A stretch of 64,000 bases of DNA from Squalus acanthias (Eukaryota). Within the stretch, counting starts at the first letter, position 1. Every line of letters starts with the position of its first letter. Shown here in pieces: positions 937-59,699 of this stretch. The position numbers and the translations under genes are program-made. The stretch lies in contig CM059440.1 in the NCBI GenBank assembly GCA_030390025.1, positions 33,232,001-33,296,000 of the forward strand, written 5' to 3'. The notes beneath the pieces were generated by a model. That model was not told the origin of the DNA. It saw nothing but the letters and a program-made list of their open reading frames with translations, and made no database searches.

Positions 937-1624
937 TTTATTTTTTTATACTAATGGAGAATTATAAACAGGATTTAAATGTAGTTGTAGTTTCGGGTCT
1001 TGAGCAGCCTAATCCGCAGTCCCTAAAGGGACCACTGGAGGCCGTTCAAAAATGTTCAGCATTTTGTGGAGTCGGAAGCAGCAGGCGTGTGCTCCTCCTG
1101 GCTCCGCCAAACGAATGTGGGCCCTTTCTCCCCTCCCAATTGCCTCATCCCCCCTGCCACGGTCTTATCTCTGGGCTTCGGCCTCGGCCAAAATTTGTCA
1201 GGCCACAACGGCTGAGCTGCGATGCTGCACCTCGTTGGCGCCCACAGCTCACCTGATTTATTCGGATGAGGCCTGAGGACAAATTGACTTCGGTTCTCGG
1301 GTCTCTCTGTTCCGGCGGTGCACGCCGCTGGAATCACGGCCGGTTTGGGGCGCTAAGCAATTTAGGTGCCAGCGTTTCTAATCTTACAAAGAAAACAGTA
1401 TAGAGACCTGCAGCCATTAGCCAACCTCAGCGTCTTTGCAATTTGTGCTGCTGTGGCTCGATAAAAAGGCTGACATGTGAGGCAGGAGATTTAAAGATGC
1501 CACAGAGGACAATCACTTAGTAGTGTTATCATCTTTGTTCAATGCCTCTGTGTATAAGAATATAGCAGTATAAAGGTTTAGCTATGAGTCATGCCTATTT
1601 GACTCATCCACTCTTATTGTACTG

Positions 1625-2152
1625 GTTCGGTGGTAGCACTCTCCCTGCACGCCAGAAGGCTGCAGCTTCATGTCCTATTTCATAATCAAGGCCAAGGCTA
1701 CAGTACAATACTGAAGGAATGTTGCACTATTGAGGATGGCATCGTTCCGATGAGATGTAAAGCCTTGTCGGCCGAATCAGATGGATGCAAAACATCCCAA
1801 GACACTTTTTTGAAGAACATCTGGTGGTTCTCTTGGTGTCCTGGCTGATAATCATCTCATTGATGTTTATGGGACTTTGCTACGCATAAATTGGCTGTCA
1901 CACTTCCATTCAATAACAGGAACTACGCATCAAAATCCTGGAACTCCCTCCCTAACAGCACTGTGGGAGTAGCTTCAGGTCAAGAAGGCTGCTCACCACC
2001 ACCTTCTCAAGGCAATTAGGGATGGGCAATAAATGCTGGTCCTGCCAGCGACGCCCACATCCCGTTAATGAATAAAAAAAGAAATAATTTATCAGCTGTG
2101 AAGTGTTTGAGATGGCCATGGACGTCAAAGCTCCTTTATATATGCAAGTTTT
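1625..2152 (+). mobile_element. Degenerate tRNA-derived Deu-type SINE interrupted by a LINE 3' end (~1932-2080)
   Basis: Head ggttcggtggtagcactctccc, body aaattggctgtcacacttcc, tail tatatatgcaag; matches the cleaner copies at 10.5-10.9 kb and 36.6-37.1 kb. Confidence 0.6.
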
Positions 2153-2426
2153 TAAAAAATAATATTCATCTTCCAATCAAATGAGAGGCCCATAGAGCCA
2201 GTCTTAGCTCATTGCTCAGAAAGAAAATCCTACATTTCCCCAACTCAGCATTCATCTGGCTCTTGAATGACTCAATGATTTTTGCCTCCATTCTCTAGAA
2301 ATCTGTTTCACGCGTTGCTTATTTTTGATGTGAGGAAATTCTACTTGTCACCAGTTTGAACCTATGTCCCCTTGTCCTAATGTTATGGCATACATTGAAG
2401 TAGTGCCACAGAGTTTCCAATACAAT

Positions 2427-3612
2427 GGCCGCGATTTTACTAACCTCGGCGAGTCCGTGGCGGGCGAAGTCGGTGGCGGGTCCCGACCCCGCTGCTGGCT
2501 CCATCCCACTGTCCAACATGATCTTCCCTTGATTGGACTTGTTAAACCCGCCCAGCGAGTTTCCCGGCCAATTAGAGAAACGGGTCTGGTGACGTCATTT
2601 GATGATGCGTCATCAGCCGGTTTCCTTAAAGGGACCATGGCCAAATTTATTTTGACATTTGTGCTGTCAGTGTTCTACAGCATTGAGGTGCTGCAAACAC
2701 TGACCAGCACTGCACAGAGGTGCACCCAGGCTCTCCCATGACTCCCTCCATATGCTTATGCAGGGAGTCACAGCACGCAGGGAGGTCCTCTTCCCTTCCC
2801 ATGTGCGGAAGAGACCTCCCCAGGAGATCAACGCAGTCTGGTTGCACATTGCACAGGAGAGCACAAGCAGGGATGTGGTCAGGAGGATCTGGGTGCAGTG
2901 CCGCAAACGTTTCAATGATCTCAGTAGATCACGAAACGTTATTACAAAGCCACACTCAACCTCATCCTGCTGTGCCTCTCATCACATCCCCATCACTCTG
3001 CCTTCCCTACCCTACTCCTGCACATTATTACACACACCAACTTACCTTGCACCTCCACCCATCCCTCTCTATCTACCTTATCACACCCCCATCTCACTAG
3101 CCACCCCTCACACTCACCCTCATCCTAGTTGAATCATACCAACTAACAACACACAAGGGCAGGCACTTGGGTGTTTTATGTAATGTTCATGTAAAGTTTC
3201 TGTTAATGTGGTGTCAAACATTGAAACCTTTATTTTCAAAACATTGCATTCTTGGACAGATTTGTGTGCACCTTTGGAAGTGGCTTAGTGAGTTGCAGTG
3301 AATGGTGAGACATAACGGTACCCCTAGCAATGGTGATGAGTGTGAAAGGAATGACTTGGGCATTGTAGGGGTGCTTTATGGTGTTGGTGTGGGGTGGTGC
3401 CAACCTGGGGTATCATGTGGCAGCCAGGGTGTACAGCGTCAAGTGAAGTAAATCTGGACTTGGTGAGACCATCCCTGGCGTCCCGGGCAGCAATGTGCTC
3501 GGGTGCTGATGCCCTGTATCCTGTGCAGCATCAGTTGATTGCGGAGAAGGTTGGTGTTGTTGTTGGTGCTGCTGGTGTGCCTGGTGCTGCTGGTGTTGGG
3601 GCTGATTGTGAC
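2427..3612. mobile_element. Non-autonomous Harbinger derivative, one end missing
   Basis: Left TIR GGCCGCGATTTT; CCAAT-TGACGTCA-CTTAAAGG promoter; degenerate Myb/SANT exon 1 (RRIWVQCRKRFNDLSRS); colinear with 18201-19937. Confidence 0.85.
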
Positions 3613-4995: not shown

Positions 4996-6365
4996 AATGT
5001 ATTTTTTGTACATTTCCCGTGCTTGATTATAAAATAGAATAAAAGAACTGTCTGAAGTCGATGAAGAATTCATCACTAACAGCCTCTTTAATTGGATCAG
5101 ACAAAGCTTGGTAATTCTGCCATTTTCCTCATTAGTTTCTAAAGAAAACATGCCACAATCACAAAATGTTGACACATATTAACACAAGTTAAATTCCTTT
5201 TTTCTCCCTTTTCAAGTTTCTCCCTTTTAATTAATGTGGTCTTTTAAAGCCTAGCATTCAAAATTAATTTACAATTCTAACGTATTATTGCAGTAACACG
5301 GACATAACCCTTATTTTCTATGTGTGAAAGTAATTATTTTCTCATTTTGTTTAAAATGATATATTTTAGTTCAGCCCTGCCATGTGGGCCATTCATGGTA
5401 TTTTAAATTTAATTAAAATGGATAAACAATGCTATCTGTTTGGATAGGGAATAAAGTCATACACAACTGAATACATGAATTGTAATGAATCTAATGGGAG
5501 ATATTTTGCTCTGACACGGTCGATCTCACTTTCCGCTATAACTGCAATTCCGCCTTTGGTCCTGCATAAATTGGAACATGCATTTTACATAGTTGCTTCA
5601 TATTTAGATTTCATTCAAATTAGTATCAAGCGTCTAAATAAAACAAGATGCAAAATAAAAAATTAGAAGGCAATTCTGTGATTCAGCACCTCCAGCAGAC
5701 AAAGGCAGCCACAGGGAGCACATCTTGGCAGGTGGGCAGCACCTGAACTTCTGTCCATGGCCCAGAATGTGCCTGCTATTTCTCAAGGTGCACTCCCTGC
5801 GATTTGAAAAAAAATTGTGCAGAATGATACTTTTTAATTTTAATCTCATTTCTTCACATTTCATAAGATCTTTGGATCTAATAAATTAATCTCCTCCAAC
5901 GAGACATTAAACTGAGGCCTCAACTGCCTGTTCCAGTGGTTTGGATGATCGTTAATGATCCCGTGACAAGATTTGAACAAGAGTGGGAGTTTCTCTCAGT
6001 GTCCTGGACAATGTATGTCCCTCAAACAACACCACCAAAATATCAGATTAACTGCTCAATTATCTCAGTGCAGTTAGTAGGATCTTGATGTGTGCAAAAT
6101 GGCTGCCGTGTTTCTCCGCGTAAAAGCCGTCATGCACTTCAAGGTAGTTCATTGTAGGTGAATTACTTTGAGATGTTTCCAAGAGCTAGGAATGACTACC
6201 AGTCTTTCCTATCTTTATCTTAGAATTAAACAAGTTGCCATGGGTTAACGCTACAACATTTGTCTAAATAATAACATGATGTGGAGATGCCGGTGTTGGA
6301 CTGGGGTGGACAAATGTGAGAAGTCGCACAACACCAGGTTATAGTCCAACAGCTTTATTTGAAAT

Positions 6366-11927: not shown

Positions 11928-13172
11928 ATGAGTGCCGTTTATACTGTCTCACCTTGGTCCTCAGAATCGGCCCACGATAAGCCCCAACACCAGCAGCAGC
12001 AGGCACACCACCAGCGGCAACAACAAGACCACCAACCTTCTCCTCAATGACCTTATGCTGCACAGGACAGAGGGCATCAGCGCAGGGCTGCACCGCACTG
12101 TCGACGATACCCCCAACACAGGATGTACAGGCAGAGGATGAGCTTCCACAACATGACTGAGCAGCAGTGCCAAAGGAGGCTCAGGCTATCGCGTCAAGTC
12201 GTCGCAGACATTTGCAGGTTGTTGGAGCAAGGGCCTGCAGCCCAGAGGACCTGGTGGACACACCTTACCAGTGGCTGTCAAACTCACCAGCACCCTCAAC
12301 TTCTTTGCCTCAGGCTCCTTCCAGGGATCTGCAGCAGACATTTACGGCATCTCGCAGTCGGCCGCCCACAGATGTATCACACAGGTCACCGATGCCCTGT
12401 TTGACAGTCAGCCAAATACATCAACTATGCCACTGATGAAGCCAGTGTTACTGAGTGGGCGTTCGGCTTTGCGGCTCTGGCTGGCTTCTCATGGGTGCAG
12501 GGCGTCATCGACTGCACACCTGTGGCCATCAGGGCACCCCATCATCACCCAGGAGTGTTTGTCAATCGCAAAGGCTTCCACTCCCTCAATGTGCAGCTCG
12601 TCTCCAACCATAGGAAGATCATCATGCATGTGTGCGCCAAATTCCCTGGCAGCTGCCATGACTCTTTCGTCCTGTGCCAGTCCACCCTCCCTCAGCTCTT
12701 CACACCTCCAAACAGATTTTCTGGCTGGCTGCTTGGAGACAAGGGCTATCCACTGAAGACGTGGCTCATGGCATCCTTGAGGAGGCCAAGTATTGAGGCC
12801 CAGGAGAGATATAATGAAAGCCACATGTCCACCAGATGTGTCATAGAGCAGACAGTAGGCATGCTGAAAATGCGCTCCAGACACCTTGACAGATCTGGAG
12901 GAGCCCTTCAGTACGCACCAGCCAGGGTCTCCAGAATCGTCATCGTCTGCTGCGCCCTGTACAACAAAGCGCAGCAGCGAGGATTAGCGCTGCATGAGGA
13001 GCAAGGCACTGAGCGCACAGCCTCTTCAGAGGAGGAGGAGCAGGAGGAGCAGGAGGAGGAGGAGGAGGAGGAGGAGGAGGAGGAGGAACCTGAGGTCCAG
13101 ATGCCAGCAGCACCTGAGCACATTGCTGCCCGGGAGGCCAGGGAGGACCGCATCATGGCCAGATTTACTTAA
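11928..13172 (+). pseudogene. Harbinger DDE transposase (HARBI1-like), disrupted
   Basis: ATG at 11928, one in-frame TGA (~12048) and frameshifts at ~12230 and ~12407. Motifs [46 protein letters not shown]; acidic poly-Glu tail. Confidence 0.9.
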
Positions 13173-13485: not shown

Positions 13486-15364
13486 CTAATGTGTCATCTT
13501 TTGCTTGCATGTGCTTCTACGAGGTGCTACCCCTATGGTTTCAGCAGAGGTAGAGGCAGCCTGCTCACTTCCCTGCTCCAACTGCTTAGACACTCTTGGT
13601 GGATGTTCTCTGGGTTTTGGAGTCTCTGATGGCCCCGCCAAAGTCTGCTCCTCCTGCGACTGTGCAGGGGCATACTCGGCCATCGTGATCCCAGGAGGCA
13701 TCTGGGGCTCTGACTGAGGGGGTGGCAATGGGGGAGAAGTGTGAGCACTTTGAGGGGAGCCCACACTTCCATGTCCCCTCTAACCATCATCCCTGTCATG
13801 GGTCACCTGCACTTCCCTGTTAGCAAGGAGCTGGAGAGCAACTTCCTGCACAGCAGTGGGGCCATGAGGACCCAAGTCTACTTTGACATCCCTCCTACAG
13901 AGGAAGTCTATGAGCCTCTGCCATCTGTTCTCCATAGATAGCATGTGAGTGACGCATTAGCTGCTCCATGCAGATGGCCATCCTTTCCATGGAAGAGCCT
14001 ACAGTCACCATCGCTTGCGACACGGTGGTGCTCATGTTGGAGATGGACTCCTCCATTCTCTGCACATTTGCAGATATCTTGGTCGCAAAACCTGTCAGAG
14101 CCTCCTGCACTCCTTCCTGCACCTCCAGGATCACCCTCTTTCCTGATGGTCCCCGAGGTTCAGCGTCTGCATGCAGCTGAGCAGAGCTGGGAGCGTCCTG
14201 CGCCCTCCGGCGAGGAGTCTCCATTGCTGTCCCTGTCTCCACCATCTCTTGCTCACTTGTGAGTTGTGAGACACCAGGTGACAACACTACTCTATCTCGC
14301 GTGGGACCCACCGAGGTGTGTGTATCTATGCTGGTGCTGGGTGTGCTCATGTCTGGTGATGGTGCACCCTCAGAGGCTGGAGGCTCCTCTGAGGAGTCGT
14401 CTTCCTCTTGCTCCTGGACAGTGGGGGGCGTGGTGTGGGGGGGGGGGGGGTGGGGAGGAGAGCTCTTGATGGACCTGTGGGAGAGTAACAAGATGACTTA
14501 AAAATGTCATATCAAGAATGGGTAACAATACCATTATGCACATGATGAACATTAACTGGCTGCTGACATCAGTCCTCATATGAGTGACTGCTGTAGGCCC
14601 TGTGGCTGTATGAGATGTAATTCTGCCATCAGGTTGTTGAGATGTCCCCCTCGCTCCGTTTCCCTCTGCCAGCTGATCTGCAACTCCTGAGACCTCCAGG
14701 GCGACCTCCTCTGCTGGAGTCAACGTGGCGAATGATGGAGGGCCACCTCCGGTTCTCTTCCTCTCCCTCTTATTGTGGGCTCTCTTTTCCTGCAAGGAGG
14801 TAAAGAGAAGGTTGAGTGAGAGTGATGGAATGAGTGGGTTACATCTTTAAAGGGTGACTATGAGGGAGTGGGGTGGCAATGCCAAAGTGCTAATGCAAAG
14901 TCGCCTCCTTCTGTGGTGTTAATTGCTAAGATTGCATTAGGATGAGGGTGCGTGTGAGGGGTGGTTAGTCAGATGGGGATGTGAGTATGTAGATAGAGAG
15001 GGATGGGTGGATGTGCAAGGTATGTTGGTGTGAGTAATGCTGTGCAGGAGTAGGGTTGGGAAGGCAGAGTGATGGGGATGTGATGAGAGGCACAGCAAGA
15101 TGAGGGTGAGTGCGGCTTTGTACTCACCTTTCTTGATCTCATGAGATCATTGAAGTGCTTCTGGCACTGCACCCAGGTCCTCCTGACCACATCCCTGCTG
15201 TTCACCTCCTCAGTCTCCAACCAGGCTCGTGTGGTCTCCTGGGGAGGTCTCTTCCACCCATCCGAAGGGAAGCGGACCGCCCAGCGTGCTCTCACTCCCT
15301 CCACAAGCATATATAGTGAGTCATCTGAGAACCTGGGTGCAGCCCTCTGTCTCTGTGCAGCCAC
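13486..15364 (-). pseudogene. Harbinger Myb/SANT-like DNA-binding protein, 3 exons, disrupted
   Basis: Exon 1 15364-15128 (GTG in place of ATG; APRFSDDSL...RRTWVQCQKHFNDL; donor GTGAGT). Exon 2 14789-14627 (EKRAHNKRERKRTGGGPP). Exon 3 from 14474, with frameshifts. Confidence 0.85.
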
Positions 15365-39477: not shown

Positions 39478-41165
39478 GGGTAATTTTAACCCCCCAACAT
39501 GGGTGGGTCAGGTGGGAAGATAAAATTGAAAAAATTTCAAACCCGAACCCAGCCCACCTCGAACCCGCCCACTTCTGGTTTTAATGGAGGCGGGACGGTG
39601 GACGGGCGACCAACCTGCTCTCAGGAGATGGGTTTCAATGCGGCTGTGCGTCTATGATTTTTTCTTTCTTCCAGCTTTAACGCCAGCTGTCCGGGTTTCC
39701 CTGGACTCGGGAAACCCGGCAGCTGAAGGCAGGCAAGAACTGGTGGATGGAACAGGTAAGTGCCTTTCCAGCACTGCTTGTAAGCCAGGAGGAGCAGAAG
39801 TGCTTCACCCGGCCTGCCAAGCTATCTTGTTAACCTCCCCATGATCAGAGCTCCCCCTCCCGCGCAATCCGATGCCCTCCCCAGGTCCTCCACAGCCCCC
39901 CTGCGATCTGCTCCATGTGCTCCCCACGATCTTCTCCTCTCCTCCCCTGATCTCTCCCAGACCCCACCCATCGATATCCCCTTGACCCCCGATCACTCCA
40001 GGCACCCCATCGATGTCCCCCTCACTGACCCCGATCTCACCGGAGGCCCCCATCGATTGGATTGGGGATCGGATCCCCCCTCTTGGGATCGGACCCTCTC
40101 AGGTCAGGGATTGGACCCCCACCCACCCGGGATCGGACCCCTTCTCCCCCAGGTCAGGGATCGGACCACCCCTGGGGTTAGGGATTGGACCCCCCCTGGA
40201 TTGGACCCCCCCAGGTCAGGGATCAGACCCCCGGGTCAGGGATTGGTCCCCCCCCAGGATCAGACCCTTTCCCCCCGGGTCAGGGATTGGTCCCCCCCCA
40301 GGATCAGATCCCTTCCCCCCTGGGTCAGGGATTGGTCCCCCCCCAGGATCAGACACCCCCACCGGGTCAGGGATTGGACCCCCCCAGGATCAGACCCCCG
40401 GGTTAGGGATTGGACCCCCCCAGGATCGGACCCCTTCCCCCCTGGGTCAGGGATTGGACCCCCCCAGGATCAGAGCCCCCACCCCCCAGGTCAGGGATTG
40501 GACCCCCCCAGGATCAGAGCCCCCACCCCCCCCCTGGGGTCAGGGATTGGACCCCCCCAGGATCAGACCCCTTCCGCCCCGGGTCAGGGATTGGACCCCC
40601 CCAGGATCAGACTCCCCCCCCCGGTTCAGCGATTGGACCCCCCCAGGATCAGACCCCCCCCCCCCCGGATCATGGATTGGACCCCCCCAGGATCAGAGCC
40701 CCCCCCCCGGGTTAAGGATTGGACCCCCCCCAGGATCAGACCCCTTCTCCCCCGGGTCAGGGATTGGATACCCCCAGGATCAGACCCCCCCTGGGTCAGG
40801 GATTGGACCCCACCAGGATCAGACCCCTTTCCCCCTGGGTCAGGGATTGGACACCCCCAGGATTAGACCCCCCTCCGGGTCATGGGTTGGACGCCCCCAG
40901 GATCGGACCCCTTCCCCCCCGGATCGGACACCCACTCCCCCTCCCCTTCGGGGTTGGGGCTCGGACCTACCCGGGTCTGTGGTCGCTTCTCCAGCCTCCC
41001 CTGCCCGACTGGAAGCCAAGCCTGTCCATCAGGCTGACATCCGAGTGGGGTTCTTGTCAGTGACATCACACGCCACTGTGGAATTTAAACCCCACAGCGT
41101 GCGGGGAGACCTGGGCTTCCGGGTTTCCTGCACGCTGCCGGTGGGTCCAAAGGTTAAAATTCCCC
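39478..41165. mobile_element. Harbinger-type MITE with an expanded internal minisatellite
   Basis: TIRs GGGTAATTTTAACC / GGTTAAAATTCCCC; flanks TGA/CGA. Confidence 0.75.
40085..40930. repeat. Irregular ~33-45-bp C-rich minisatellite
   Basis: Recurring GGGTCAGGGATTGGACCCCCCCAGGATCAGACCCC with variable C tracts. Confidence 0.92.
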
Positions 41166-42565: not shown

Positions 42566-43459
42566 GGGGGAGAAATTCAGTATCGCCCCATTTGGGGCGC
42601 AATTATCGGCCGGGCGCAAAGATTAGTGCCTGGTGCTAATTATCGCCTCCGACTGCAAACTTGATTTTTATCGCCCCTGGAGGTGATTGGAGCGCTAAAT
42701 CAGGTGCTTCACACCTGTCTTAAGGCGCAAAGGCCGAAGAGCGAGGCGCTACCTCAGAGCGCTGGCGAAGCTCATGTGATGTCAGTCAGCAATGGAACAC
42801 ACACACAATGACACGGGTCAGTTCTTAAACGGGGGGTTTGATCTTGCTTTCCATCCACATCCTGCTCATTGCAGCCTTGAATCTCGGCCTGGAGAGAACT
42901 GTACATCAAATCTGCTGGAAAGAACAATGGAGAGAACCAGGGAAAGAGCTCAGAGTACAGCCCCCACAGTCTCTTCCAAATCGATACAAGGAAGGGCAAA
43001 TCAAAATGAACCTGCAAAGTGCTGCTCAGTACCCGAAACTCCTTCACACAGCGTTGAATCTCTCCAGAAGTCTCTCTCTCTCTCTCTCAGAATGCGTGGT
43101 TCAAAAATGTCATCAACAATAAAAGGCAGGCAGCGGTCGCCTTTAAATAGCGCTCCCCCAGTCCCTTCCTGACTGCAAAACGCTCCCCTCAACCTGTCGT
43201 TGCTAGCGGCAGGCGGTAAGGCAGGGGGCACCACTCAATATCCGCTCCGGGGCGATACCGGGGCGTTGCGCACTCGACTGACGTCACGATCTGCCGGCGC
43301 AGGAGATTGTGGCGGTAGTGTTTAGCGCCGCTGCAAAATGTCTAGTTAATTTCGCGAGCGGCGCAAACATCGCCACGCCCGGGCGCTAGTTGCTTTGCGC
43401 CACATTAGCGTCCTCTAAAGGCGCTAACGGGAGGCGCAACCAACTGAATTTTTCCCCCC
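42566..43459. mobile_element. Non-autonomous derivative of the 43608-47920 Harbinger lineage (opposite orientation)
   Basis: TIRs GGGGGAGAAATTCAGT / ACTGAATTTTTCCCCCC; TSD ATG; each half is homologous to one end of the autonomous element. Confidence 0.93.
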
Positions 43460-43774
43460 ATGGTGTTACTAACTCAATTCAGGGTCAAATAAGATGAAGA
43501 GAATGTGAACAGTCTATTTCAGCCAGAGAGAGAGGCTGGGGAGGTAGTTGGAATCAGTGGCAAGATTATGGAGCTTGCAGCGGGGGCCTCAGGCTTCAGT
43601 ATTCTTAGGGGTAAAAATTCAGTTGGTTGCGCCTCCCGTTAGCGCCTTAAATGGGCGCTAATGGGGCGTTAAGGCGCTAACGCCCGGGCGCAGCGCTGTT
43701 TGCGCCGCTCGAGAACTTAACTTGAGATTGTGCGGCGGCGCTAAAACTTACCGCTGCGACCACCTGCGCGCGCA

Positions 43775-43930
43775 GATTGTGACGTCATTCCGTGGTGCAA
43801 CGCCCTTGGGGCGCCCCGGAGCGGAAATTGAGTGGCGCCCCCTGCCTTACCGCCTGGCGCTTCCAACGACCGGAAGACTGGAACGTTATCAATCGGTGTG
43901 GGGCTGGGGGGGGCGCTATTTAAAGGGGGC
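43775..43930 (+). promoter_or_regulatory. Putative transposase promoter
   Basis: CRE TGACGTCA at 43780-43787, ACCGGAAG at ~43869, G-rich box, TATTTAAA at 43917-43924, then a (GA)n leader; CRE, TATA and (GA)n are also kept in both MITE copies. Confidence 0.55.
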
Positions 43931-44119
43931 CTCTTCCTGTCTTTTTCTGTGGTCGACATTTATGCACCACTCGTTCTGAGAGAGAGAGAGAGATTCGGAG
44001 AGAGAGAGAGAGAGACTTCTACATTGACTCAACGCTTTGTGAGGTAGTTTTGCCTAGTTCATCCTAACTTTGCTGCTACTTTCGTTGCTGTACCTCATTA
44101 CTTTTCTGGCAAAGAGAAT

Positions 44120-45280
44120 ATGGGGGCTGCAATGATTGGGGGCGTCGTCCTGCTCCAGCTCAATCGGAGGAGAGTGAGACGCAGACAGAGAGTGGCAATG
44201 ATGGCCAGACGGAGGAGGGCCATCAGGCGCATGTACAGGAGAGCTTACCCTCCCAGGGTATATCGTGAACAGCTCTCCTACATCCACATGTCCGAGGAGC
44301 TGTGTTTGCGAAGGCTGCGATTCAGCAAGGAGGTGGTCACTGAGCTCTGCCACCTGCTGCAGCCAGATCTGCAGCCTCAGCTGAGGTCCAGGACGTCTCT
44401 GTCGGTGGCAGTGAAGGTCACAGTGGCTTTGAACTTCTACGCCACTGGCTCATTCCAAGCTGCTGTTGGGGACCTCGCCAATATCTCCCAGTTTGCGGTG
44501 CATCGCTGCATCCGGCAGGTCACCAATGCCCTCTTCACAAGGAGACGAGACTTCATCTCCTTCCCTATGACCCCAGACAAGCAGCATGACCGTGCTATGG
44601 GCTTTGCGAGGGTAGCGGGCTTCCCCATGGTGCAGGGCGCCATTGACTGCACGCATGTGGCTTTGCGTGCTCCGCGAGAGAATGCAGAGGAGTTCCGGAA
44701 CAGAAAGGGGTTCCATTCCTTGAATGTGCAGTTGGTCTGTGACCACAGACAGGTGATTCTCGCTGTCAATGCCCACTATCCGGGCAGCTGCCACGATGCT
44801 TTCATCCTGCGCCAGAGTACTGTGGCAGAAATTTTCGAGGCACCGCATCAGCCAGTTGGTTGGCTTCTGGGGGACAAGGGGTACGCATTGAGCACCTGGC
44901 TGATGACACCGCTCCGTGCGCCAAACACCCCTGCTGAGCTGCGGTACCAGGAAAGCCAACAAGCAACGAGGAACATTATTGAGCGCACAATCGGCGTGCT
45001 CAAACAACGATTCCGCTGTCTGGACCATTCCGGAGGAGCCCTGCAGTACTCGCCTGAGCAAGTTTCCAAATTCGTAGTGGTGTGCTGCATGTTGCACAAC
45101 ATGGCAATCCTCAGGACGCAGCCAATGCCACCAGGCCTTGCAGCACCACAAGAGGAGGAGGAGGAAGAGGAGGAACAGGCCGAGGACGATGATCAGCAGC
45201 AGCACCAAGGCAGGAGGGCGGCCCACAATGGTCAAACTGCAAGGGCCGTCCGTCAACGACTAATAGCAAGCCGCTTCTAG
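44120..45280 (+). CDS. Harbinger DDE transposase (HARBI1-like nuclease), intact, 386 aa
   Basis: Uninterrupted ORF: N-terminal HTH region (RRLRFSKE, FYATGSFQ), catalytic GAIDCTH / LLGDKGY / [28 protein letters not shown], acidic tail. Confidence 0.96.
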   Translation: MGAAMIGGVVLLQLNRRRVRRRQRVAMMARRRRAIRRMYRRAYPPRVYREQLSYIHMSEELCLRRLRFSKEVVTELCHLLQPDLQPQLRSRTSLSVAVKVTVALNFYATGSFQAAVGDLANISQFAVHRCIRQVTNALFTRRRDFISFPMTPDKQHDRAMGFARVAGFPMVQGAIDCTHVALRAPRENAEEFRNRKGFHSLNVQLVCDHRQVILAVNAHYPGSCHDAFILRQSTVAEIFEAPHQPVGWLLGDKGYALSTWLMTPLRAPNTPAELRYQESQQATRNIIERTIGVLKQRFRCLDHSGGALQYSPEQVSKFVVVCCMLHNMAILRTQPMPPGLAAPQEEEEEEEEQAEDDDQQQHQGRRAAHNGQTARAVRQRLIASRF

Positions 45281-45546
45281 GGCCCCTGCACGCAACCCCT
45301 AAGCCGGCCAAGGCACCAATAATTCCAACCACCAGCCATGTATATTTTGAATACAGAAACTTATTTATTGTACAAACTCTGTGTGTGTCAATTCCTCATG
45401 ACAAACTCATAGAAATAAACACAAAAAAACAGTCAATAACATAACTGGTTCTCACAACCTGGAGATAATGTCCAAAACACTAAACAAAAGTTGGGCCATG
45501 AACCTCGGCCTTTAATAAAAAAATGACCAGCATTTTGGCACACCTC

Positions 45547-47563
45547 CTACTTTTTGCCCTTCGAGGGTGATCTCCTTCCCTTGCGCACTTCCCCCCTTCT
45601 AACCCTACTGCTCCTCCGTAATGGGACCTCAGTGGCTGCAGCAAGGCTGATGGAAGGCTGCTGCTTGTCAGACCCTGACACTGCAGATGCCCCTGAAGGA
45701 CGGCCTCGACCACTTCTGGGCCTGGAGGGCCCGGCTGCAGACTGCACCAACTCTGCATGGGCGGCAGCAGTCTGTCCTACAGGCGGTGGCAAGTGCAGTG
45801 GAGAAGTGACAGTGTTGGCAGCAGGAATGCTGTCATCGTGAGAGAGGACAGCAACTCCCTGCTCGCCCGACACACTGGCACTCCCACGGGGCAGCACTTC
45901 AGCATCCGGAGCAATTTGCCGGAGAACAGATTGCTGGCCTGCTGCGGCGCGGTGACAGCCCCGGGGACATGTGCACGAACCATCGAGGATGGCAGCAGTC
46001 AGTGCTCGCGTGGCCTCAATCTGAGTCTGCATGAGAGCAGTCTCAGATGGGTTCCTGGCAGCCAGTGACTGAATTGCAGCAGTAAGCTTTAGTGTGGCAT
46101 CCGCCTGTGCTACAGCGAAGTGCTCCACACTCCTTGCCAGTGCCTCAATGCATTCGGGCACCCTTCCCACTGCACCCATGAGCTCAGTGTGCATGCCCAC
46201 CGCCTGGCTGTTCATTTCTGCAATCAGCCGCTCCTCCTCTGCGTCCATTGCATTAGGAGTGTCTGGCATACTCTCCCTCTGGGGAGAAGGCTCCCGTTCT
46301 TCCCTCCCCCCCCATGGCGTTGCTGCAGCCCGCTGGGTCCTGGAACTTCACCATCATCAGCCCCTTCCCCCCTGCTCCCCCGTTCTTCCCTCCCCCCCCA
46401 ATGGCGTTGCTGCAGCCCGCTGGGTCCTGGAACTTCACCATCATCAGCCCCTTCCCCCCTGCTCCCCTCCGGGGAAGGCGTGTTCCCAGTGTGGCCATGG
46501 GCTTCCTCGGGAGAGGGTGGCACTGATGCTCCGGCTTCCTCTTCCTCCTCAGCTGCAGCATCACTCCCAGTGGCAGCTTCAGGGACCATCTCCTCAGCTG
46601 GTGAATCACCATCTGAAAGCAGGGAGGTACAAGAGTGGCTTTAGTGTGAGGACAGGGTGGCAGTAAGGGAGGAATAAGTGCAGCGAGTTAGCAAGTTGGA
46701 TTGAAAGTGTCAAAGGCTGGTATTGTGAGGGACAAGTGGAAGGACAGAGGACAAAAAGGTGATGACCTTACCATTGCTGTCCACAACGGGGTCGGCGTCT
46801 CCAGTGGCGACGGGACCGATCACCCGGCTTGCCACAATCCTGTGGACGCGCTCCTCCAGATCGCTGAGGGGTTGCAGCTGAAGCCGCCCTCCACCCGTCC
46901 GTTGCTGCTGTCTCCGATTATGAGCCAGCTTGGCCTGCAAGAAAAAGGACAGCATCTGAGTCAATATACAGCCATGGTCTTGCCTGATGTGCCTCCCATA
47001 GGTGAATAGCCCTTACAATATGCAGCCATGGTCTTGCCTGATGTGCCTCCCATAGGTGAATAGCCCTTACAATATGTAGCCATGGTCTTGCCTGATGTGC
47101 CTCCCATAGGTGAATAGCCCTTACTGTATGCAGCCATGGTCTTGCCTGATGTGCCTCCCATAGGTGAATAGCCCTTACTGTATGCAAAGTGTGGAATGTG
47201 TGTGTGTGTTTGATGAAAGGGCCATAGGTGTTGCATGAGTGTTGTGCATTGGGGTTTTAAGACCCTCTGGCCATAGAGTGAGGTTGAGATGGAGGGATGG
47301 AGAGGTATTGAGAAAAAGCCACTCACCCTGACGACCCGAGTGAGGTCGTTGAACTTTTTGCGGCACTGGACATGGGTCCTGGGCACCATGCTCCTGGAGG
47401 AGACGCTCTGAGCCACCTCCCTCCACACTCTTCTGAACTCGCGTGGCAAAGGCCTCCTGCCACTCTCCGGGAACAGCATGCATCGTCTGCGCTCCACTGC
47501 GTCAACCAGAGCATCCAAGGCCCGCTCGGTGAAGCGATGAGCGCGTTCTCTCACCCTCTCCAT
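45547..47563 (-). CDS. Harbinger Myb/SANT-like DNA-binding protein; exons 47563-47327, 46934-46772, 46612-45547; one 1-nt frameshift at ~46313
   Basis: MERVRERAHRFTERAL...W...RTHVQCRKKFNDL | AKLAHNRRQQQRTGGG | acidic linker, helical region, basic tail; canonical GT-AG sites with matching phases (0, then 1). Confidence 0.88.
46966..47186. repeat. 54-bp tandem repeat, 4 copies, in Myb intron 1
   Basis: GCCATGGTCTTGCCTGATGTGCCTCCCATAGGTGAATAGCCCTTAC... at 46971, 47025, 47079, 47133. Confidence 0.95.
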
Positions 47564-48557
47564 GCTTGGCAGCAAAATGGATTACAGGTCTCTCCAGGCT
47601 GAGATTCAAGGCTGCAATGAGCAGGGTGTGGCTGGGAAGCAAGTGGCCCCCCCCGCTTTAAGAAGTGTCCGGCGCCAGTGTGTCTGTGTTCCCTCGCTAA
47701 CTGGCAGCAGCTGCGCTGCGCTCGTGCGCTGAGGTAGCGCCTCACTCCTAGGCCTTTGCGCCTTAAGAGAGGTGTGCAGCGCCTAATTTAGCGCTCCACT
47801 CACCTCCCGGGGCGGTAAAAGTGAAGTTTCCTGTCAGTGCCGATAATTAGCGCCAGGCGCTAATATTTGCACGCGGACGATATTTGCGCCCCAAATGGGG
47901 CGCGACCTAATTTCTACCCCTTAGTGTTTAGCTGCAGGAAATTGAGGATAATCCAAGAGCCTAACGTCACATAGGTAGTGGAATGGTCGGGACAAGTGGT
48001 AGAAAGGTGGAGTTGGATGTTGTCAATATACATGTGGGACCTGACCCCCATGTCTTCAAATAATGTCGTCAAGGGGAAGTATGTAGATGAGGAAGAGGAG
48101 GGGGGTCAGGGTGGGGGGAGGGGGAACAAGGATAGATACTTGAAAGTCACCAGAAGAAAAGGTGCAGGAAGAGAAGCCATCACTGAAATTCAGCACAAAT
48201 TGGCATTATATCAACACTCTTACTCAGAGAGGGTGGTTGGGATGGAATTATTGCACTACTGCAGTCGGAGGTGTTCTTCTGAAGTTGGGGGTTAAGCATA
48301 TTATTGTAACAGTATAGAAAGATGTAAATCCTATCCCTAACTACAAGCTGGGAGGGTTTGATGCTGACACTAAAGGGAAGATTTTCTGATTGTGTGCTTC
48401 TGGTGCAGAGTTGCGCTCACTGGGAGTGGATATTGGAACATTATGCGAATATTGTCCGTGGTGATTTTATGTCCATTAAAATGAATGGAGGGAAAATTGT
48501 GGGCCTTGTCAAATTCCTGCTATGTGCTCCCAATGAGCAACGCCCTGCACCTGAATA

Positions 48558-49442
48558 ATAGAATCATAGAATGGTTATACCATTCGGCCTGTCGAGCCCA
48601 TGCCGGCTCTCTGCAAGAGCAAGAGCGCTTCAGCTAGTCCCACTCCCCCACCCTTTCCCCGTAGCCCTGCAATTTTTTTTCCTTCAGGTACTTATCCAGC
48701 TCCCTTTTGAAAGCCATGATTGAATCTGCCTCCACCACCCTTTCAGGCAGTGCATTCCAGATCCTAACCACTCGCTGCGTAAAAAAGTTTTCCTCATGTC
48801 GCCTTTGGTTCTTCTGCCAATCACCTTAAATCTGTGTCCTCTGGTTCTCGACTCTTCTGCCAATGGGAACAGTTTCCCTCTATCTACTCTGTCCAGACCC
48901 CTCATGATTTTGAACACCTCCATCAAATCTCCTCTCAACAACCCCAGCTTCTCCAGTCTATCATCGTAACTGAAGTCCCTCATCCCTGGAACCATTCTTG
49001 TAAATCTTTTCTGCACCCTCTCTAAGGCCTTCACATCCTTCGTAAAGTGCGGTGCCCAGAATTGGACACAATACTCTAGTTGAGGCCGAACCAGTGTTTT
49101 ATAAAGGTTCATCATAATTTCCATGCTTTTGTACTCTATGCCTCTATTTATGAAGCCCAGGTTCCCGTATGCTTTTTTAACCGCTTTCTCAACCTGCCCT
49201 GCCACCTTCAATGATTTGTGCACACATACCCCCGGGTCTCTCTGTTCATGCACCCCCTTTAGGACTGTACCCTTTAGTTTATATTGCCTCTCCTCGTTCT
49301 TTCTACCAAAATGTATCACTTCGCACTTTTCTGCGTTAAACTTCATCTGCCACGTGTCCGCCCATTTCACCAGCCTGTCTATGCCCTCTTGCAGTCTATC
49401 ACTATCCTCCTCACTGTTCACTACACTTCCAAGTTTTGTGTC
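48558..49442 (-). mobile_element. CR1 LINE 3' fragment
   Basis: WQMKFNAEKCEVIHFG, LVRPQLEYCVQFWAP, RTRGH motifs. Confidence 0.95.
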
Positions 49443-49528
49443 ACAATTGAAAAATTTATCCTATAGGACAAAAAGTGGTAAAAACATTCCACTCCTCTGC
49501 ACTGACAGTGATGAACACAAATACTTAC

Positions 49529-58808: not shown

Positions 58809-59699
58809 GGGGGAGAAATTCAGTATCGTCCCATTTGGGGCGCAATTATCGGCCGGGCGCAAAGATTAGCGCCTGGCGCAAATTATCGCCACCGACTGCA
58901 AACTTGACTTTTATCGCCCCTGGAGGTGATTGGAGCGCTAAATCAGGCGCTGCACACCTGTCTTAAGGCACAAAGGCCGAGGAGCGAGGCGCTACCTCAG
59001 AGCGCTGGCGAAGCTCATGTAATGTCAGTCAGCAATGGAACACACACACAATGGCACGGGCCAGTTCTTAAAGGGGATGGTTAATCTTGCTTTCCATCCA
59101 CATCCTGCTCATTGCAGCCTTGAATCTCGGCCTGGAGAGACCTGCACATCAAATCTGCTGGAAAGAACAATGGAGAGTACCAGGCAAAGAGCTCAGAGTG
59201 CAGCCCCCACAGTCTTTTCTAAATCGATACAAGGAATGGCAAATCAAAATGAACCTGCAAAGTGCTGCTCAGTACCCAAAACTCCTTCACACAACGTTGA
59301 ATCTCTCCAGAAGTCTCTCTCTCTCTCTCAGAATGCGTAGTTCAAAAATGGAACCAACAATAAAAGGCAGGAAGCGGTCACCTTTAAATAGCGCTCCCCC
59401 TTTCCCTTCATGACTGCAGAACACTCCCCTCAACCTGTCATTGCTAGCATCAGGCGGTAAGGCAGGGGGCGCCACTCAATATCCGCACTGGGGCGATACC
59501 GGGGCGTTGCGCACTCGACTGACGTCACGATCTGCCGGCGCAGGAGATCGTGGCGGTAGTGTTTAGCGCCGCCGCAAAATCTCTAGTTAATTTCGCGAGC
59601 GGCGCAAACTTCGCCGCGCCTGGGCGCTAGATGCTTTGCGCCCCATTAGCGCCCTCTTAAGGCGCTAACGGGAGGCGCAACCAACTGAATTTTTCCCCC
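58809..59699. mobile_element. Second copy of the 42566-43459 Harbinger MITE
   Basis: TIRs GGGGGAGAAATTCAGT / ACTGAATTTTTCCCCC; TSD AAG; colinear end to end with copy 1. Confidence 0.95.

Follow-up and report, generated by a model that had tools for sequence, protein, structure and literature searches.

Can a vertebrate cut-and-paste transposon that looks nearly complete in a genome assembly still move, and does any such capacity lie with that copy or with its relatives? The question is raised by a Harbinger element of Squalus acanthias at positions 43608–47920 of a 64,000-nucleotide stretch of contig CM059440.1 (assembly GCA_030390025.1, forward-strand positions 33,232,001 to 33,296,000), which is called the window here and whose own numbering is used throughout. 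A preliminary description had regarded the element as potentially active or easily revived. We consider it highly probable that this is a full-length copy with a frameshifted Myb gene, belonging to the youngest subfamily of a two-gene Harbinger family of several thousand copies. Proteins of intact sisters likely inserted it, and slippage in a run of C residues likely disabled it. Potential activity, itself unproven, fits the family and not the window copy as assembled.

One TTA triplet stands on each side of the element (43605–43607 on the left and 47921–47923 on the right) as its target site duplication. The 12-nt left terminal inverted repeat (TIR; 43608–43619, forward strand) matches the right one (47909–47920, reverse strand) at 11 of 12 positions, and a weaker likeness continues beyond them. 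A CpG-rich subterminal region follows the left TIR to about 43900 and another precedes the right TIR; the observed/expected CpG ratio is 1.26 at one end and 1.0 at the other, versus 0.42–0.49 in the flanks. These termini are as they had been described, and all coordinates given earlier held on re-inspection. The flank beyond the right duplication is single-copy in the shark's own genome assembly, where its next best match is 83% identical over 132 nt, and no second haplotype of the flank was found in that assembly.

The first gene (44120–45280, forward strand) is an intact open frame for a 386-amino-acid DDE transposase of the Harbinger/HARBI1 type, the type found in the PHIS superfamily (PF13359, E = 5e-38). 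It includes D176, D252, and E288, which we take to be the catalytic triad of what is presumably a “DD35E” enzyme. That label does not occur in the available passages of PMC4482050. The three residues are kept in 103/103 open 386-amino-acid transposases of the family, and the protein of the window copy is identical in eight other sampled copies. A search of solved structures matched nothing meaningful. The nearest database proteins are shark and ray entries named “putative nuclease HARBI1,” the best of them 54–66% identical, which share the same motif blocks. Unlike the window family, 11 of 12 aligned HARBI1 relatives, including all nine from sharks and rays, lack the glutamate at E288; these relatives are likely dead or domesticated copies and may be undescribed.

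The second gene lies on the reverse strand. Exon 1 (47327–47563) encodes a Myb/SANT-like DNA-binding domain (PF13873, E = 1e-9). It is followed by a predicted GT-AG intron 1 (46935–47326) that holds a tandem repeat whose number of 54-bp units varies, by exon 2 of the gene model (46772–46934), by a 159-nt GT-AG intron 2 (46613–46771), and by exon 3 (45547–46612), which comprises an acidic linker, an 87-bp repeat, and a long C-terminal part. This three-exon model was borne out in the window copy and in its sisters. Exon 3 of the window copy is frameshifted within the two 87-bp (29-codon) units at 46293–46467. A run of eight C residues (C8; 46306–46313, forward strand) occupies one unit and C8 followed by A (46392–46400) the other, as reported before, and the spliced frame runs to residue 262 and then stops, just beyond the C8 in the unit that is read second. 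Thus, the Myb/SANT gene that PHIS members carry is present in the family and broken in the window copy. The frame restoration that had been guessed occurs in nature: in sisters whose run is 9 nt long the frame stays open and yields a 488-amino-acid Myb protein, QRHGGGREEREPSPQRES. Open Myb frames in sister copies range from 458 to 517 amino acids. Family members carry one, two, or three 87-bp units, and their Myb frames are open in 7/15, 18/35, and 5/8 copies, respectively.

The C8 run had been called the only visible lesion. It is the sole frame-breaking one, but not the sole private change. Alignment with sister loci revealed a noncoding 28-bp deletion between two stop codons (45289..45290), which is found in none of the 28 other cleanly spanning loci; a 29th (L008) is rearranged there. 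In addition, six substitutions of the window copy are absent from 19/19 of its youngest sisters, and one of them alters a Myb residue.

The family was sized by motif matches in the 3.7-Gb genome. A motif around the C run has 1,678 exact matches, 91 of them with C8, while a looser Myb exon-2 motif has 6,004 matches and a left-end motif 12,877. From 6,004 copies of 4.2 kb, the family's share of the genome would be about 0.7%. Altogether 140 distinct copies were fetched. Among the best 40 matches, a score-biased set, all are full length, 39 have a perfect 3-bp duplication, and 21 have both frames open. To avoid score bias, two samples were therefore taken by position, the first 62 of the 1,678 matches and the first 62 of the 6,004, with 22 loci in common. 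The former contains 55 full-length copies, 52 with an open transposase, 30 with an open Myb gene, and 23 with both; the corresponding counts in the latter are 53, 41, 35, and 23. All both-open copies in each sample are full length and have GT-AG sites. Extrapolation gives about 620 (95% confidence interval 420–840) and about 2,200 (1,500–3,000) both-open copies, and so we estimate that hundreds to thousands of sisters keep both genes open. Because intact natural copies abound, revival is unnecessary and the phrase “easily revived” is misplaced. The same is true of the contrast once drawn with the reconstructed zebrafish system, since abundant intact copies have also been published for sea kraits (passages of PMC8437027).

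The sampled copies fall into subfamilies that differ from their own majority sequences by 0.79, 0.59, 0.43, 0.19, and 0.15%, with the window copy in the 0.19% group. Near-identical young copies had been proposed as a check and were found; a frameshift in all copies together with a lack of young ones, which would have spoken against the preliminary description, was not observed. Ratios of nonsynonymous to synonymous polymorphism (pN/pS) were computed from 126 full-length copies, and a parsimony count was made on 124 (L166, L074, and L080 being left out). Variants present in at least five copies are constrained, with pN/pS of 0.18 in the transposase (P = 9e-8) and 0.11 in the Myb domain (P = 0.001). 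The Myb C-terminal part is unconstrained, at 0.90 for singletons and 1.35 for variants in at least five copies. On the transposase parsimony tree, terminal branches give 0.47 versus 0.22 for internal ones (P = 0.0009), a difference that holds without CpG changes; mosaic copies are probably what brings the terminal branches below 1. Passages of a 307-genome survey describe DNA transposons as evolving neutrally within genomes (PMC7070016), and the constraint among these subfamilies departs from that pattern. The data hint at an age-ordered subfamily series with a low ratio of nonsynonymous to synonymous divergence (dN/dS), partly explained by recombination.

The low dN/dS between subfamilies need not come from selection on an active lineage within this genome. 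We give somewhat better than an even chance to the proposal that older, diverged Harbinger lineages recombined or underwent gene conversion with one another, or that sharks repeatedly exchanged such elements. Transposase synonymous divergence between the oldest and youngest subfamilies is 15.6%, compared with 2.1% for Myb exon 3 and 0.6–0.9% for introns. Some copies (L071 and L078) are mosaics, several sites flip back and forth, and a related family of 70% identity agrees at synonymous steps with the newer allele in 23 cases, with the older in 16, and with neither in 10. Against the proposal, the alleles diagnostic of the oldest group disappear step by step, through intermediates and in a nested series that follows the age order; at the element ends, older noncoding derivatives match the oldest subfamily by 26 to 9; and none of the 13 frame-breaking transposase indels is shared between copies. 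No close donor lineage was found, the related family that was located being only about 70% identical. Gene conversion among diverged lineages may nevertheless supply much of the constraint signal. Clean purifying selection within the genome is weakened as an explanation by the low intron divergence, the mosaics, and the synonymous-allele matches to the related family, while repeated entry as separate families is not favored, given the nested allele series.

Further observations concern the same sequences. Changes between subfamilies in the Myb C-terminal part (equivalents of window 45550–46269) mostly alter amino acids, 12 versus 1 at one step and 19 versus 4 overall, unlike those in the Myb domain. 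The Myb introns (window 46613–46771 and 47216–47326) differ by 0–0.9% between subfamilies, versus 12–16% at coding synonymous sites. Of 53 matches to the related family, 17 lie on one strand within 380 kb of the shark's own genome (C6:46821276–47204492), a clustering that suggests a tandem segmental array.

Recent movement is indicated first by the window locus itself. An insertion polymorphism had been suggested as a check, and in both of two DNA sequencing runs (X1 and X2, two samples of organism A from two studies) one unbroken contig joins 43603 to 47920, giving a precise empty site for the window copy with a single TTA. Harbinger excision is usually clean, according to passages of PMC2836001, and an empty site is therefore ambiguous between a copy that never inserted and one that was excised; either means movement after the haplotypes split. 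Elsewhere in the genome, two copies at different target sites (L091 and L099) align over 4,288 bases without a mismatch and differ by three 54-bp units, and 7/62 sampled copies lack any private substitution. Finally, the intron-2 joint 46612>46772 is exact in X17, X18, and X19, three of four runs guessed to be RNA, from two studies and two organisms. These spliced contigs support the gene model and indicate that the family, rather than the window copy in particular, is transcribed. Because of the empty site, the mismatch-free pair, and the spliced intron, the family likely moved recently. Measured against what a naturally active vertebrate DNA transposon should display, the empty site and the identical pair point to recent rather than present movement, and that the family is still active today falls just short of an even chance.

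A number of points weigh against the overall reading. Mismatches to the window number 5/347 and 3/329 bases in the two empty-site contigs, and because of them organism A may be a sister species rather than the same population. The RNA label of X17–X20 is a guess and one of the four lacks the intron-2 joint; the intron-1 joint is absent among the joints listed in their contigs, two contigs in RNA-like runs cross donor 1 unspliced, and the RNA-like contigs carry alleles of older subfamilies. Both 62-copy samples come from one contig (C1), where two pairs of segmental duplicates are among them. An open frame does not by itself mean function, and singleton variants are near neutral (pN/pS 0.80 in the transposase and 1.06 in the Myb domain). 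At the pedigree mutation rate reported for another shark species in passages of PMC10587355, 7e-10 per base per generation, the youngest groups are about 2–3 million generations old, the whole range of 0.15–0.8% corresponds to 2–11 million, and the identical pair is bounded only to fewer than 500,000.

Such figures would also fit an extinct family, whose slowly decaying remains seem fresh just because sharks mutate slowly, and we rate this slightly below even. In its favor, besides the mutation rate and the near-neutral singletons, relatives occur under at least six organism labels, as expected if the family spread before speciation. What stands against it are the copies without private substitutions, the mismatch-free pair, the empty site in 2/2 DNA runs, the spliced contigs, and subfamily ages that fall steadily toward the present with no gap.

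The C8 run raises a narrower doubt, as it had been suspected to be a homopolymer sequencing error. Across the 62 sampled copies the run is an uninterrupted C9 in 44, C8 in 5, and C10–11 in 11. Among the 58 copies that could be assessed, an out-of-frame C run is found in 23 of the 28 broken Myb genes. Other G/C runs vary in length and A7 runs are constant (62/62 and 53/54 copies). We infer that slippage in G/C runs is the main cause of Myb breakage in the family, and slippage in the C run likely disabled the window copy. Sequencing error is unnecessary to explain C8, because the 91 copies that carry it belong to several subfamilies. In the tree of sampled copies the C8 members sit in separate clades, and a propagated defective C8 subfamily was rejected for this reason. 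Still, the 24 sequencing runs considered consist of contigs, and the two DNA runs compared lack the insertion; the C8 of this locus may be an error of the assembly and the copy intact in the animal. We regard this as unlikely. Homopolymers are error-prone, run lengths of 8–15 are scattered on the tree without lineage signal, and run X2 has error-like one-base losses at many runs. However, A7 runs in the assembly are invariant while G/C runs vary, run X1 repeats the latter pattern at a G8 run, and gains exceed losses (11 versus 5). The verdict on the family is the same whether C8 is real or an assembly error. A domesticated host gene of the HARBI1 type, single-copy and without its ends, is ruled out by thousands of copies that retain ends and duplications.

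Where the family inserts can be read from 111 of the 140 sampled loci that are full length with a perfect 3-bp duplication, representing 102 distinct sites; TIRs and a 3-bp duplication are as in the PHIS superfamily. The duplication lies at the center of a 15-bp palindromic target, ARASWC-WWW-GWSTYT, with A at −5 in 91% and T at +5 in 90% of the distinct sites. The flanks match the Harbinger3_DR consensus of zebrafish (AAACAC/GTCTTT, from passages of PMC3016246) at 7.7 of 12 positions, versus 3.4 at 5,000 random window sites. One 21-nt site was struck seven times, by old and young subfamilies and in both orientations, and another site five times. The central triplet is WWW in 75/102 sites, TNA in 28, TWA in 25, and CWG in 1. 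The strict PIF/Harbinger duplication, TWA, therefore applies to the window copy but to only a quarter of the family's sites, and the CWG of NuwaI to almost none. NuwaII inserts at C|TNA|G, and the shark family has the flanking C at 61% and the flanking G at 74% of sites, with TNA at 28/102. This relaxed duplication fits no group strictly as defined in the available part of PMC4482050. As a separate observation, 13 of the 111 insertions (L002, L031, L059, L066, L075, L096, L103, L106, L108, L121, L143, L160, and L034) lie inside a tandem repeat of 8-nt units that agrees with the target consensus and is probably the tail of a long interspersed nuclear element (LINE).

The zebrafish pair Harbinger3_DR/Harbinger3N_DR is reportedly the subject of the study by Sinzelle et al. 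in 2008. It shares with the shark family the two genes (a DDE transposase and a Myb-like protein), the 3-bp duplication, and the palindromic 15-bp target, and differs from its mostly WWW center. The zebrafish system was rebuilt from a consensus, in contrast to the abundant natural open-frame copies here, a comparison made by description only (passages of PMC2836001 and PMC3016246). Harbinger-Snek of sea kraits, as described in parts of PMC8437027, is likewise high-copy. L. colubrina has 269 intact two-gene copies; both genes are covered by RNA, there are non-autonomous derivatives, and activity is unproven. Thus, intact, transcribed, high-copy vertebrate Harbingers are already known. Snek differs in having entered by horizontal transfer and in making up 8–12% of the genome, whereas the shark family has its nearest proteins in sharks and rays and forms an age-ordered subfamily series. 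The Nuwa groups of the PHIS superfamily, likened here by their features, have TIRs that likewise start with GG/GGG, a length of about 4.3 kb, and DDE and Myb/SANT genes (passages of PMC4482050). No description of the window family and no cell assay of a native animal Harbinger was found in the literature searched, outside which lay most subscription journals, Repbase, and supplements.

Other sequences of note lie in the window. Two 890-bp noncoding deletion derivatives with target duplications, about 80% identical to the element ends, lie at 42566–43459 and 58809–59699; the first is inverted, has an ATG duplication, and is separated from the element by 149 bp. At 12405–13169 on the forward strand lies a transposase frame of a more distant Harbinger type, and a convergent acidic frame at 13898–14497 on the reverse strand may be its partner. 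There is also a GC-rich tandem repeat array at 39900–40950, and a reverse-transcriptase remnant at 48687–49460 adjoins the element.

Both proteins are needed, and reportedly suffice, for Harbinger transposition, the Myb protein binding the ends and importing the transposase (passages of PMC2836001 and PMC9179366). By analogy with the zebrafish and rice systems, the shark Myb protein would bind the ends and carry the transposase into the nucleus, and the transposase would cut and paste the element, with the 3-bp duplication forming at the center of the 15-bp target. As assembled, the window copy would supply transposase and not a full-length Myb protein, and it could still be moved in trans by sister proteins; such action in trans is suggested because the 890-bp noncoding derivatives with duplications lie in the window. 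The family probably spread in successive waves, the latest as recent as dating can resolve.

A bolder reading remains doubtful: that this is a native, still-active vertebrate Harbinger with about 2,000 open-frame copies, which has lasted within a single shark lineage as subfamily followed subfamily in the manner of LINE-1, while selection, or recombination with diverged relatives, preserved the function of its transposase and Myb domain (trunk dN/dS about 0.2). If true, it would contradict the rule of neutral decay of DNA transposons within genomes, and would offer a ready integration system of two proteins that prefers a 15-bp site and needs no rebuilding from a consensus. The window copy itself matters little. 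The value of the family is that its vertebrate Harbinger proteins are natural and need no reconstruction, and that their preference for a 15-bp target can be measured; the vertebrate Harbinger working in cells in passages of PMC2836001 and PMC3016246 had been reconstructed. Set beside the survey of PMC7070016, the family also serves as a test case for how a cut-and-paste element escapes decay in a slow-mutating host.

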